A program made the position numbers. DNA of 20,805 nucleotides. It comes from a virus. Taxonomy: Duplodnaviria; Heunggongvirae; Uroviricota; Caudoviricetes. The stretch is taken from IMG/VR virus record IMGVR_UViG_2778261509_000017, one strand, 5' to 3'. This document shows, one piece after another, positions 12,001 to 15,000 of the stretch (positions are counted from its first letter, which is position 1; each line of letters opens with the position of its first letter).

Positions 12001-15000
12001 AATCCCATTGCCAAAGTATATAGTTCGCCGGAATTAAGTTTATCCTCGGTTAACTCATCTCTTAAGTCAATAATTATATCAATATTTGATAAAGGAATTC
12101 CCAGATGATGAATGTAATGCGTTATTAATTGTGGGTTAACCAGATCTAACGTGGTTAATCTCAAGCATATTTCATTCTGTATTAATTCATCAATCGCTCT
12201 TTTATAGTTAGATGGGCGAGTTGGTGAACTGACAGGAATAACTCTTATCCCCATATCTCTAACTTGATTAACCGCATTTATTATAGGGTAATGATCTTCA
12301 GGCGAAATAAAATGCTCTTCAATTAATAATCCATCAATATAAACACCTTGCATATCTGAGCAAGATTTTGAGACTTTCTTTCCGAACTCTATAAGAGTCT
12401 CGTTATAACTCTTTAAGGCAATACCTGAATCAGGGTCAATTGGCACTGGTTCAATTTCGAGTAATGGCAAAATTTTTGATTTCTTTTCAATGGATAGCTG
12501 CGATAAAGCTGATAACTCAGAACGCTTCGCTTTCAGAATAGGAATATATGAAATTGTCATGTTAAAACCTTATACAGAATCAATTAACAATTAATGGTTC
12601 TTCGGACATTGAAATTTATATCGCAAAAATTGGCAAACTCTCCTCGACTACTTACTTGTGGGTATCCTGGCGTAAAAGGAATGACTTGGCAATACCCGGT
12701 GTGATCATAAGTCATTGAAAATGATCATTTTTATCAGTCTTTCTTCCATGATGAATGCTAATGCCATTTGATTTGTTGAGGTGAAAACTGTTAAAAATCA
12801 AAACGATGTAATTGAAATGAACGTTCGGTAGCATTCACGCTTTAAATGTTTCTTTTGTGCTGATTGGATGAATTTTGGTCACTTATGTTGAGAGATGTTG
12901 CAGGAAAAGAAGTTGGCATTGATCTATTGGATAGTTAGAATTGCTGCGGGTGCTTGAGGCTATCTGCCTCAGGCATGAACACCAAAAGGCAGATAGAGAA
13001 AAGCCCCAGTTAACATTCGGCGTCCGGCAAGACGCTTAACATTAATCTGAGGCCATATCTATGCGACACATAGAGATTAGCCTCTTACGGACCGAAAGGT
13101 CAAGGAGAAGCAGGCTATGAAGCAGCAAAAGGCGATGTTAATCGCCCTGATCGTCATCTGTTTAACCGTCATAGCGACGGCACTGGTAACGAGGAAAGAC
13201 CTCTGTGAGGTACGAATCCGAACCGGCCAGACGGAGGTCGCTGTCTTCACAGCTTACGAACCTGAGGAGTAAGAGACCTGGCGAGGGAGAAATCCCTCGC
13301 CACCTCTGATGTGTCAGGCATCCTCAACGCACCCAAATATTGATGCATTACATTGTTGTGTTTGAGAATTTGTTTGAACATAATTTGAACGATATTTAAG
13401 AGGAGATACGCAATGATCCGCAAACTGGTGAGATTGCTTAAAAGTGGTTCAAAGCCGTTCGACATCACTGAAATGCAATTGATGTATGATGAAATCGAAG
13501 AAAAGCAAAGAAAAATTGCTGAGGAAAAAGCAAGGATCAAAGAGGAGCATGCCAATGGATCAAGATTGTCAAGCCGTAGATTCACTATTTGATTACCTTT
13601 ATCTTGACAAAGAGCGCGTAGGTTACTTCACTGCGCAATTATTTCCATCAGGAGTATTGAATGCTGTAAAACAAATCTCGTCCAGTTCTGAGCATTCATT
13701 AAATGAACTTAAAGGTGGCGTTTCATTATTTAATGCCAGGAAAAATGCGGGGGATTCTTTTGCAAAAACGCAAGAGCGGCATTTTGACTCATCATGGTCT
13801 TTACCATTAAATTTTTTTGATAAGTTGCACGAACAAGGCTTGGTGGCAACGAGCTTAGAAAATGCAGAAATTGGAAGTCTGGTGATGGTAAAAGGGCATA
13901 TCAAATTATTTGATGTGAAAATGGCTCATGATGTTCTCCCTATATATAAAGATGCAAAACAAAAAGAACTAAAGCAGACTAAATCACCAGCTCAGAAAAA
14001 AGATATTCAAGAAGAAATTTATCATGCTAAAATGGCTGCTGACATGTTTTCTTTGCTCCCGTTCTCTACACAGATAGAGCTTCTTGACGATCAAGAAAAT
14101 ATATTCTGGATGTCGGTCAAGGCTGATGATTTAGCTTTAGATGTGGGAAATCTTGCATTAAAGTATGGTTCCAGAATACCTGGTGAATGGTATGTCATCG
14201 GTGTTATAGATGCGCTCCCGGATATAAGTGACGAGACAGTTTCAGAGTCAATATTTCCTTCTGACGAAATCAGAGGCACAATAGACTATATGCTTGAAGG
14301 TATTCGTGGAATGATTGGGAGGAGCGAAACTTCCTATGGTATGACACCGCTAGTAATTTTCAGGAAGGTGTCTTAACCGAACTTGTTTTTAGTTTTTTTT
14401 GGCAGATTTTGTCTTTTTTATTATTTATGAGTTACAATCTGTCGCGCTAGCCTGAACAACTGGCACCTGCTGCGCCAGCAGAGAAAACAGATGGCGCACA
14501 AGACCAAATTACACAATTCTGATACCGTTCGTGCCAGCAGGCACGGGCGGTGTTCTCACACATTCAAATATGACTGGTATCAGCACGACCCCTGCACTGA
14601 AGAACAGGCCGAATGGCTGATTCATAACTACCGCAGACGTGGGTATGAGTTTAGGAAAGCCCTCAGCCTCGATTATCGTCACTGGATAATCTACGTCAGA
14701 CTCCCTTATTCCGAACGCCCACCGCGTCCGTCCCGCACATTCCAGCAACGCATCTGGAGGTAACGTGCGGGTATTACTTCGACCTGTTCTGGTGCCGGAA
14801 CTTGGGGTGGTTATCGTTAAGCCAGGTCGTGAATCCATGCAGGTATTCCATAACGGCAGAGTGCTGGTTGAACCGGAGCCAAAAAGCATGCGCGGTCTGC
14901 CGTCCGGAGTTGTTCCCGCCGTTCGCCAGCCGCTGGCGGAAGATAAATCATTACTGCCATTTTTCAGCGATGAGCGGGTGATTCGTGCTGCCGGCGGCGC

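Follow-up and report, generated by a model that had tools for sequence, protein, structure and literature searches.

A two-gene cassette in an Stx2e prophage, pairing a small tailed peptide with a DUF6414 protein: a candidate phage-defence or addiction module

What function is served by two overlapping genes that occupy an AT-rich accessory segment beside hok/sok in a prophage of Escherichia coli? The genes lie in the window, a stretch of 20,805 nucleotides analysed here as a whole, which is an Stx2e prophage of E. coli RM10740 (record NZ_CP043821.1 is 100% identical to it). A first-pass annotation had described a small open reading frame (ORF) preceded by a strong Shine-Dalgarno (SD) sequence, a larger ORF starting within it, and a candidate toxin-antitoxin (TA), abortive-infection or defence function. 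Both ORFs have the limits that were then assigned to them, RefSeq/PGAP annotates the same two coding sequences, and the strong SD is in place ahead of the small ORF. The functional guess has become the best-supported reading, on grounds of context and family, because HicAB shares the slot of the cassette, half of the viral homologues lie directly downstream of repressors, IS1595 elements carry the pair as their one cargo and the larger protein belongs to DUF6414, the family of Dodola DolA. On balance, and with modest confidence, we regard the cassette as a probable TA-like module for phage exclusion or defence, and as a new variant related to the Dodola system.

The accessory island of the cassette adjoins hokD/sok, as had been noted, and its site is a hotspot of prophages, bounded by hok/sok on one side and by the conserved 90-aa ORF/DUF968 genes on the other. 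Homology with a prophage in which this site is empty (L057) ends at position 13334 and restarts at 14398, and the left boundary thus placed is common to the HicAB cargo of a second prophage (L055) and the unrelated-pair cargo of a third (L056). The same slot in other E. coli prophages is empty or is filled by HicAB, an unrelated gene pair or IS1203. The pair of 68 + 272 aa found there in strain JNEC-KY180 was considered as a diverged copy of the cassette and rejected (BLASTP E 2.0, no DUF6414 match). The AT-richness reported earlier is borne out by a GC content of 37.5% for the cargo segment, whereas the flanks have 49.6% (left) and 50.8% (right). No Rfam families were found within the cassette, and no same-strand ORF of at least 100 aa lies within 200 bp of it in the window. 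The cassette appears to carry its own sigma-70-like promoter, of which TTG and GAACATAATTT are invariant in an alignment of the window with cassettes of two other genomic contexts; a consensus promoter scan missed it because its -35 hexamer is weak (3/6). The cargo segment is best read as a two-gene module, autonomous and horizontally mobile, for which a temperate phage or an insertion sequence (IS) serves as carrier. The coordinates of its features are summarized in Table 1.

Table 1. Features of the cargo segment and of the two-gene cassette within it (positions in the window).
Feature	Position	Strand	Remarks
Cargo segment, 1,063 bp, 37.5% GC	13335..14397	.	Boundaries by comparison with empty-site prophage L057
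Sigma-70-like promoter, predicted	13356..13384	+	TTGTGT (13356-13361), 17 nt spacer, CATAAT (13379-13384)
SD of small ORF, AAGAGGAG	13398..13405	+	Sequence read; 7 nt ahead of ATG
Small ORF, 59 aa, pI 9.8	13413..13592	+	PGAP CDS WP_089565161.1 in NZ_CP043821.1; phrog_29688
SD of large ORF, AGAGGAG	13541..13547	+	Within small ORF (K-E-E codons), 7 nt before ATG 13555
Large ORF, 273 aa, pI 4.9, soluble	13555..14376	+	PGAP CDS WP_089565162.1 in NZ_CP043821.1; phrog_9699; DUF6414
Dual-coding overlap, 38 nt	13555..13592	+	Small-ORF TGA stop within F12-D13 of large protein
Tail codons, GSRLSSRRFTI	13557..13589	+	Family motif G-[AS]-R-x4-R-F-x-[LI]-stop

The start of the large ORF and its SD lie, as first described, inside the small ORF and in another frame, shifted by +1. 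The overlap is of exactly the same length in 10 of 10 first-round loci (in Methylomagnum with the start corrected to GTG 5938), and the position of the small-ORF stop is identical in 36/36 genome loci. This fixed position is explained by a dual-coding constraint, as the TGA is held within the [FY]-D of the motif DS[LV][FY]DFLYxD, which is invariant in the large protein. At the position of the internal SD, AAAGAGGA is kept in the enterobacterial homologues and in Methylomagnum. Coupled expression had also been suggested for the two genes; the overlapping arrangement that would serve it is conserved across phyla, and from this arrangement we infer the coupling itself.

The small protein matches phrog_29688 over its whole length (1-59 on 1-59/59, E 1e-17). 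It had been called helix-prone, and its AlphaFold2 model (single-sequence, pLDDT 73) has a helix at residues 3-10 and a long helix at 18-48, followed by an extended C-terminal tail (49-59). Outside the overlap, dN/dS of the small ORF is 0.07-0.45 wherever dS is computable, and stops are present in both alternative frames of this region. By these comparisons, the conservation of the small ORF is far beyond chance, and the alignments indicate that both genes are under purifying selection. The C-terminal tail motif is, on the sequences compared, near-universal in the family: in 44 loci, its positions are held by G at -11 in 37, [AS] at -10 in 34, R at -9 in 43, R at -4 in 40, F at -3 in 41 and [LI] at -1 in 42, and 68/76 IMG/VR copies match the motif when it is written as a strict regular expression. 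The tail is selected in its own right, since residues 1-8 of the large protein, which are encoded by the same bases, are variable and disordered. No family for the small protein was found in Pfam, NCBIfam or PADLOC, a check of 10 diverse small proteins gave no Pfam domain (DNA-binding domains included), and a word-indexed search with the 59-aa protein recovered near-identical copies only.

The large protein, in which no domain had at first been recognised, is by its profile match a peripheral member of the Pfam family DUF6414 (PF19952), and the earlier statement is thereby superseded. It passes the gathering threshold of this family (25 bits) with 32.1 bits (E 1.3e-7), residues 12-234 being aligned with model positions 2-234 of 283, and the family is also matched by 106 of 141 diverse relatives (best clade E 2.9e-14) and by all 6 relatives from phages and other phyla. 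Its match to phrog_9699 covers nearly all of the protein (1-272 on 1-268/270, E 7e-71). The predicted structure is of the alpha/beta type and includes an OB-like barrel and a variable helical hairpin. Variation is located in a loop (45-70), the hairpin (121-165) and a further loop (223-237), and the conserved core comprises residues 9-33, 71-93, 109-120, 191-222 and 254-273, within which are conserved acidic and basic residues (viz. D13, D18, R21, D78, D120, D219, R256 and R270). A PDB profile search with the large protein gave nothing below E 0.09, and Foldseek found no match at E<=0.001 in PDB or BFVD, with no RexA-like chain among the matches listed. Homology to a phage structural or housekeeping protein was looked for and none was found, and the cassette proteins contain no recognisable toxin or nuclease motif. 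Truncated copies are present in E. coli, as would be expected of a gene that is costly. In the literature, we found no characterisation of DUF6414/PF19952 and no experiment on the cassette or on members of its clade.

The two genes are conserved together in about 120 loci from a diverse range of taxa, viz. Gamma-, Beta- and Alphaproteobacteria, Bacteroidota, Acidobacteriota, Campylobacterota and Firmicutes. The small ORF keeps its relative frame and its stop position in 36/36 full-length genome loci, in 76/77 IMG/VR loci and in the phage records examined, and the helical peptide that it encodes ranges from 50 to 120 aa across the family. At 50% identity, the system falls into more than 1,300 clusters, and a rerun of the protein search with a 141-sequence profile added few relatives. 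An all-against-all BLAST of flanking ORFs identified no conserved third gene. The recurrent neighbours (repressors, Cro/YdaS-like genes, YdaT, RecE and the IS1595 transposase) are all context genes, with no recurrent ATPase among them, and an ORF with a Walker A motif lies within 200 bp on the same strand in only 1 of 48 loci.

The absence of such an ATPase bears upon the relationship of the cassette to Dodola, a validated system in which DolA is a DUF6414 protein (bioRxiv 10.1101/2024.10.26.620412) and is paired with DolB, a P-loop/ClpB-like ATPase that is also called MoxR-like (Millman et al. 2022). The mechanism of Dodola is itself unknown (PMC12322248), and homology to DolA therefore transfers no mechanism to the cassette. 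The two systems share the DUF6414 family, a similar size and a two-gene operon on mobile or accessory DNA, and the published match of DolA to the family (residues 19-277) is near the size of the large protein. However, the cassette has no DolB-like ATPase (48 loci checked, apart from the one Walker-A ORF), and it has an obligatory overlapping small-peptide partner, of which we found no description for Dodola. In PADLOC-DB 2.0.0, which is assumed to include the DolA model, the window protein has no match at E<=1, and the DolA model matches none of 141 relatives (E<=0.01) and none of 6 distant relatives. The lack of DolB and of a DolA-HMM match rules out a complete Dodola system, and the sequences point weakly to a distant link with DolA.

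Two other types of system offer comparisons. Homologous cassettes share with RexAB and other repressor-linked exclusion genes (e.g. Stk of 933W) the slot downstream of the repressor on the same strand, and the cassette is likewise a two-gene moron, the large protein being close in size to RexA, which has 279 aa. Unlike RexAB, it has no PADLOC match and no membrane-embedded, RexB-like segment in either protein. Neither protein contains a transmembrane segment (maximum Kyte-Doolittle 19-residue score 0.93), and a membrane-acting exclusion protein (SieB/RexB/Imm-like) is ruled out, as neither has a hydrophobic segment. With type II TA systems, the cassette shares two overlapping genes of which the small one comes first, and carriage by prophages and ISs; a single conserved upstream promoter-like motif and the internal SD lead us to predict co-transcription, either the cassette or HicAB can occupy the same hotspot, and truncated copies exist. 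The epsilon/zeta system, in which a small helical partner accompanies a toxin of about 280 aa, has a similar layout, but the large protein is not zeta-like, because it has no Walker A motif, and a zeta-toxin-like kinase is ruled out on the same ground. The cassette also differs from type II systems in lacking homology to the TA families in Pfam, NCBIfam and PADLOC, in the charges of its products (small basic, large acidic), which are the reverse of those in many type II pairs, and in having a small protein without a recognisable DNA-binding domain. A DNA-binding antitoxin domain is not universal among TA systems.

The genomic contexts of the pair allow other explanations to be weighed. One is that it is purely an addiction (post-segregational killing) TA pair, which stabilises prophages and ISs and has no anti-phage role. 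Alphaproteobacterial copies are borne by IS1595 elements of 2.05-2.13 kb, which have terminal inverted repeats of 27-38 nt and no other cargo, and housekeeping genes flank many of these alphaproteobacterial loci, so that classic defence-island enrichment is modest; an Enterobacter island, in which the pair adjoins a Shedu-domain protein and a PemK-like gene, counts in favour of the exclusion or defence reading. Sole carriage amid housekeeping genes, HicAB in the same prophage slot, the adjoining hok/sok and the overlapping small-then-large operon layout all agree with pure addiction, which is nevertheless unlikely in view of the strong preference of the pair for the exclusion slot downstream of a repressor and its membership in the family of a validated defence protein. 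Addiction and defence overlap as readings, since many TA systems also defend.

The same preference invites an explanation in terms of lysogeny, whereby the pair would be an accessory that modulates the repressor, prophage induction or a host pathway, with no killing or exclusion. A cI-like repressor is the nearest upstream same-strand gene in 36 of 71 IMG/VR loci (22 of 44 lineages), and a position downstream of the repressor is also occupied in Rac-like, Serratia, Morganella, Clostridium HM T and Nitratiruptor NrS-3 phages and, on the same strand, in many genome loci. That half of the viral lineages have the pair directly 3' of a cI-like repressor and co-oriented with it, and that a recognisable toxin or nuclease motif is lacking, is what such an accessory would lead one to expect. 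However, the pair stands alone in contexts where no repressor is beside it, viz. the tail regions of Moraxella phages, integrase-proximal sites of Bordetella phages, IS1595 elements and the window, whose phage repressor (6324-6743) is away from the cassette. These contexts argue for a context-independent function, and we regard a lysogeny or host-physiology role as improbable.

It is very improbable that the pair serves IS1595 transposition as an accessory factor and was acquired secondarily by prophages. The small-ORF start of the IS1595 copies does overlap the transposase stop (ATGA), and in three genera (Nitratireductor, Reyranella and Methylocystis) the terminal inverted repeats enclose the pair, which is placed after the transposase and before the right repeat. 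Against this, most copies, including all of those in enterobacteria, phages and Bacteroidota, have no nearby transposase, and to our knowledge IS1595 elements in general do not require such passenger genes. IS1595-family ISs of the ISNwi1 type reportedly carry passenger genes; the alphaproteobacterial pair is placed likewise, whereas the window has no transposase. Programmed +1 frameshifting that fuses both ORFs into one protein, which the universally conserved relative frame and stop position might suggest, is the least probable explanation and is ruled out by the conservation within the overlap of the signals for starting the large ORF (a strong SD and the start codon) and by the lack of a prfB-type +1 slippery motif at the stop (overlap read by eye).

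A TA-like exclusion or defence module could work as follows. The promoter of the cassette would drive both genes in the lysogen, and ribosomes that finish or unwind the small ORF would start at the SD and ATG in its last 12 codons, so that a 7-kDa basic peptide and a 31-kDa acidic protein would be made together. The non-helical tail of the peptide may dock on the large protein, with the long helix alongside, and keep it inactive or poised, the peptide standing in for the DolB ATPase of Dodola. This complex would be disturbed when another phage infects the cell or when the element is lost, possibly through turnover of the peptide after transcription shut-off or through a phage product that binds the hypervariable helical hairpin and loops. 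The acidic/basic core of the DUF6414 protein could then act on a cellular or phage target, for which the OB-like barrel of the model hints at a nucleic acid or nucleic-acid-binding protein, and halt the growth of the phage or the cell. Carriage of the module would benefit the phage (or IS) and its host alike.

In its widest form our proposal is tentative, and we hold it to be quite possible, falling somewhat short of probable. The pair would represent an undescribed and phylogenetically very broad immune/addiction system, in which a DUF6414 effector, its fold unlike that of any solved structure, is under the control of a dual-coded tailed peptide. This system would be a minimal counterpart of Dodola that has no ATPase, and it would spread by preference in the immunity regions of prophages and, unaccompanied by other passengers, in IS1595 elements. 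If this is true, the system could reveal what DUF6414 proteins do. The cassette would be a simpler, ATPase-free relative of a validated system, and its origin in an E. coli prophage opens it to direct experiment in the model host with the best tools. The pattern of conservation (viz. the dual-coded overlap, the tail of the peptide, the acidic/basic core and the hypervariable surface) yields both hypotheses and mutants. Its position behind repressors in five phyla, and its carriage by IS1595 elements that have no other passenger, suggest a general minimal strategy of immunity or addiction for small mobile elements, and because its host here is an Stx2e-converting prophage, the cassette may affect which phages superinfect Shiga-toxin-producing strains.

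Our analyses have identified the two overlapping ORFs beside hok as an ancient, tightly co-evolving pair, probably linked in translation, that moves as a unit among prophages, IS elements, and satellites or islands. Both ORFs are present as the first-pass annotation had described them in coordinates, Shine-Dalgarno sequences and frame: PGAP annotates exactly these two CDSs, both as hypothetical proteins, and the PHROG profiles phrog_29688 (E 1e-17) and phrog_9699 (E 7e-71) match the small and large proteins, respectively, from end to end, which supports the start of the large ORF at 13555 over the upstream ATG at 13486. 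The ORFs overlap by 38 nt, the frame of the large one being +1 with respect to that of the small one. The segment is AT-rich, as had also been claimed (37.5% GC vs 49.6% and 50.8% in its flanks). The two-gene finding is real, and the cautious proposal of a candidate toxin-antitoxin, abortive-infection or defence module was a reasonable one.

Positions of the cassette, its neighbours and the loci compared
Sequence	Feature	Position	Strand	Remarks
Window	sce7726-family and Beta genes	10925-12560		convergent, 3' ends overlapping by 41 nt; within same AT-rich island
Window	complete hok/sok type I toxin-antitoxin locus	12948-13272		directly left of cassette
Window	sok	12948-13119		Rfam, 107.5 bits
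Window	hokD CDS	13117-13272		
Window	-35-like hexamer	13356-13361		promoter-like motif
Window	CATAAT	13379-13384		promoter-like motif
Window	small ORF	13413-13592	+	59 codons; AAGAGGAG 7 nt 5' of ATG
Window	large ORF	13555-14376	+	273 codons; AGAGGAG 7 nt 5' of ATG
Window	promoter-like TTGTCT-18-TACAAT	14409-14438		precedes 90-aa ORF
Window	90-aa ORF	14491-14763		right border of hotspot; conserved (phrog_1212, E 1.4e-37; no Pfam family)
Window	tRNA, anticodon CAT	18418-18493		5' of stx2e; ARAGORN + Rfam
Window	'tRNA-OTHER'	~18501-18581		PGAP; undetected by ARAGORN / Rfam
Window	tRNA Arg-TCT	18595-18671		5' of stx2e; ARAGORN + Rfam
L057, E. coli prophage	hok-to-DUF968 slot	675-841		empty
L055, E. 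coli prophage	hok-to-DUF968 slot	896-2026		HicA/HicB + one further gene (142-aa ORF)
L056, E. coli prophage	hok-to-DUF968 slot	920-1947		uncharacterised 68-aa + 272-aa pair, without Pfam family
L027, alphaproteobacterial	IS1595-family element with pair	3836-5964		
L029, alphaproteobacterial	IS1595-family element with pair	133-2237		
L042, alphaproteobacterial	IS1595-family element with pair	255-2306		
L060, Clostridium phage HM T	copy of the pair	2361-3262		order repressor, small ORF, large ORF kept
L061, Nitratiruptor phage NrS-3	copy of the pair	2329-3253		order repressor, small ORF, large ORF kept

The chromosome of E. coli RM10740 (NZ_CP043821.1) contains the window at 100% identity; the window spans the left half of a Stx2e-converting lambdoid prophage integrated beside ompW, in the order integrase, excisionase, exonuclease, dicB, repressor and cro-like genes, ydaT, replication genes, accessory island, DUF968, rusA, DNA methyltransferase, tRNAs and stx2eAB. 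Homology to related prophages stops at 13334, just 3' of the hok/sok locus, and restarts at 14398; the 3' end of that locus is the conserved left boundary of a cargo hotspot with the order hokD, cargo, 90-aa ORF and DUF968. The content of this slot varies among E. coli prophages and is IS1203 in O111 strains. The 68-aa and 272-aa pair found there in one prophage is unrelated to the cassette (BLASTP E 2.0, no DUF6414). The flanks of the cassette are found in thousands of E. coli genomes and the cassette itself in only 6/5,426 complete genomes (RM10740, four porcine ETEC strains and one bat isolate), and GenBank phage records contain no match to it at the DNA level. A second accessory pair directly to the left consists of a sce7726-family protein (NCBIfam NF033832, E 1.7e-56; PADLOC 'cll', E 2.4e-28) and a Beta protein (PF14350, E 4e-52; PADLOC PD-Lambda-2_C, E 1.3e-41, and also 'beta'), and looks like a candidate Rst_gop_beta_cll or PD-Lambda-2-type defence pair without a gop gene.

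The large protein passes the Pfam gathering threshold for DUF6414 (32.1 bits, E 1.3e-7), and a profile search with it matches 1,362 clusters at 50% identity (E<1e-3), the homologues among the matches listed all being single-domain proteins of about 255-355 aa. DUF6414 is matched by 106/141 diverse members of the protein's clade (best E 2.9e-14), which is peripheral to the family. The protein is acidic (pI 4.9), and neither a membrane segment nor a Walker A motif was found in it. Its conserved blocks comprise residues 9-33 (DS[LV][FY]DFLYxDxxR...AQ), 71-93 (FDxxWxLP), 109-120, 191-222 (LK[YH]G...G.W...D.xP) and 254-273 (GR...YGxTPLxIFR), while the loops 45-70 and 223-237 and the hairpin 121-165 are hypervariable. 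An AlphaFold2 model built from 38 homologues has fair confidence (pLDDT 77.5, pTM 0.73) outside residues 1-8 and 44-74, and contains long beta-strands, the helical hairpin 121-165 and a beta-rich C-terminal part, where the predicted order of elements (strand, hairpin insert, two strands, short helix, strand, helix, strand) fits an OB barrel. No significant match to this model was found in PDB and BFVD (Foldseek), nor to the protein in a profile search of PDB sequences. Full-length copies are present in E. coli, E. marmotae and E. albertii, beside truncated versions (158, 200 aa) on several E. coli contigs, perhaps a sign that a costly gene is decaying.

The pair occurs in accessory slots of mobile elements and prefers a lysogen-expressed exclusion slot. 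In Rac-like and other lambdoid prophages of Enterobacteriaceae, Klebsiella, Serratia and Morganella, the gene directly 5' of the pair, on the same strand, encodes a cI-like repressor, as it does in phages HM T (Clostridium) and NrS-3 (Nitratiruptor); among the IMG/VR loci with sufficient upstream sequence, a repressor-like protein is the nearest upstream same-strand gene in 36/71 (22/44 distinct lineages). This place downstream of the repressor is that of rexAB in lambda. Some copies instead adjoin the integrase (Bordetella phages) or gene D (a P2-like prophage) or are flanked by tail genes (Moraxella phages), and one shares an Enterobacter island with a PemK-like gene and the genes of a DUF927 primase and a Shedu-domain protein. 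A minority of neighbours elsewhere match defence models (viz. mad3, mad8, AriA, RmrA, IetA, AbiLi and R-M subunits), and no recurrent third gene was found alongside the pair among the loci. We somewhat favour the reading that the pair is an exclusion, abortive-infection or addiction module. That it serves addiction purely appears unlikely, as does a role as an accessory of lysogeny or host physiology.

In alphaproteobacteria, the pair lies 3' of an IS1595-family transposase (PF12762 + PF12760), the stop codon of which overlaps the small-ORF ATG (ATGA), and in Nitratireductor, Reyranella and Methylocystis it belongs to a 2.05-2.13-kb unit between terminal inverted repeats of 27-38 nt (core GGGACCTATATACG). 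The genes flanking these elements are mostly housekeeping, as expected from IS insertion. The pair is their sole passenger. That it is an IS transposition factor is very improbable.

The overlap of the two ORFs is itself conserved. Ten loci located via large-protein homologues (Enterobacter, Enterobacteriaceae, Klebsiella, Serratia, Morganella, a P2-like metagenomic prophage and Methylomagnum, the last counted after shifting the large-ORF start to a GTG with its own AAGAGGA) have an upstream ORF of 57-63 aa overlapping by exactly 38 nt. A scan of one genome per species added 36 full-length loci from Gamma-, Beta- and Alphaproteobacteria, Alistipes and a Bryobacteraceae MAG, all of which (36/36) have, upstream and in an unchanged relative frame, an ORF with its TGA stop inside the invariant [FY]-D of the large protein's N-terminal motif. 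The same arrangement is seen in 76/77 IMG/VR loci. Large-gene homologues are also present in sequenced temperate phages of Bordetella, Acinetobacter, Moraxella, Clostridium and Nitratiruptor, with the small ORF in 4/4 loci examined (one from each host except Acinetobacter).

With a median pI of 9.9, the small proteins are basic; each is predicted to consist of one long helix and, after it, an extended tail, and they have no covering family in Pfam, NCBIfam or PADLOC. They share the C-terminal motif G-[AS]-R-x4-R-F-x-[LI], with R(-9) in 43/44 loci, F(-3) in 41/44 and [LI](-1) in 42/44. The bases of this tail also specify residues 1-8 of the large protein, and these are variable and disordered, which argues that the tail is selected in its own right; from the genetic code, retention of F(-3) and TGA in high-GC alphaproteobacteria would require disfavoured GAT and TTT/TAT codons. 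Outside the overlap, dN/dS of the small ORF is 0.07-0.45 where measurable, and the alternative frames contain stops. A frameshift fusion of the two ORFs is very improbable as well. A different tail is found only in the two most distant phage copies, HM T (…GKKLP) and NrS-3 (…KTDGII), with overlaps of 43 and 14 nt, and this suggests a second subtype of peptide partner. The bases 5' of the small ORF (TTG-N3, a 17-nt spacer and CATAAT) are conserved across three unrelated contexts, and the cassette thus seems to carry a promoter of its own; with its weak -35 hexamer, this predicted promoter was missed by a consensus scan. No intrinsic terminator was predicted for the cassette, and a T-rich tract lies 3' of the large-ORF stop.

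In the anti-phage system Dodola, DolA is a DUF6414 protein (HHpred E 4.7e-69 to PF19952) and DolB a P-loop ATPase (DefensePredictor supplement; bioRxiv 10.1101/2024.10.26.620412), and the mechanism is listed as unknown (PMC12322248). The large protein belongs to the same Pfam family as DolA. The PADLOC DolA model matched 0/148 proteins (the window protein and its relatives), and a Walker-A protein adjoins the pair in only 1/48 loci, which indicates that there is no DolB equivalent; the cassette was therefore rejected as a Dodola system. It was also rejected as RexAB, it matched no member of a known toxin-antitoxin family in the libraries searched, and no paper characterising it was found in the literature. 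Hence, the cassette represents a module built around a DUF6414 protein, in which the partner, a peptide, is new; by analogy, its mode of action may resemble that of prophage modules of the type II TA or Rex type.

As an exclusion, abortive-infection or addiction module, the pair would benefit its carrier. The peptide may bind the DUF6414 protein via its invariant tail and thereby keep it inactive or poised; infection, or loss of the element, would perturb this complex, and phage or cell growth would then be blocked by the large protein's conserved charged core, which may be an OB-like module for binding nucleic acid or protein, the hypervariable hairpin and loops being candidate recognition surfaces. 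The roles given here to each partner are tentative, and the basic charge of the small protein, the acidic charge of the large one and the lack of a DNA-binding domain would also fit a peptide that is the effector or an adaptor. The cassette is a good candidate for experiment, being of interest for its cross-phylum dual-coded peptide tail, its repressor-linked and IS-borne lifestyle and its lack of a solved structural relative, and it may provide an opening onto the mechanism of DUF6414 proteins and Dodola.
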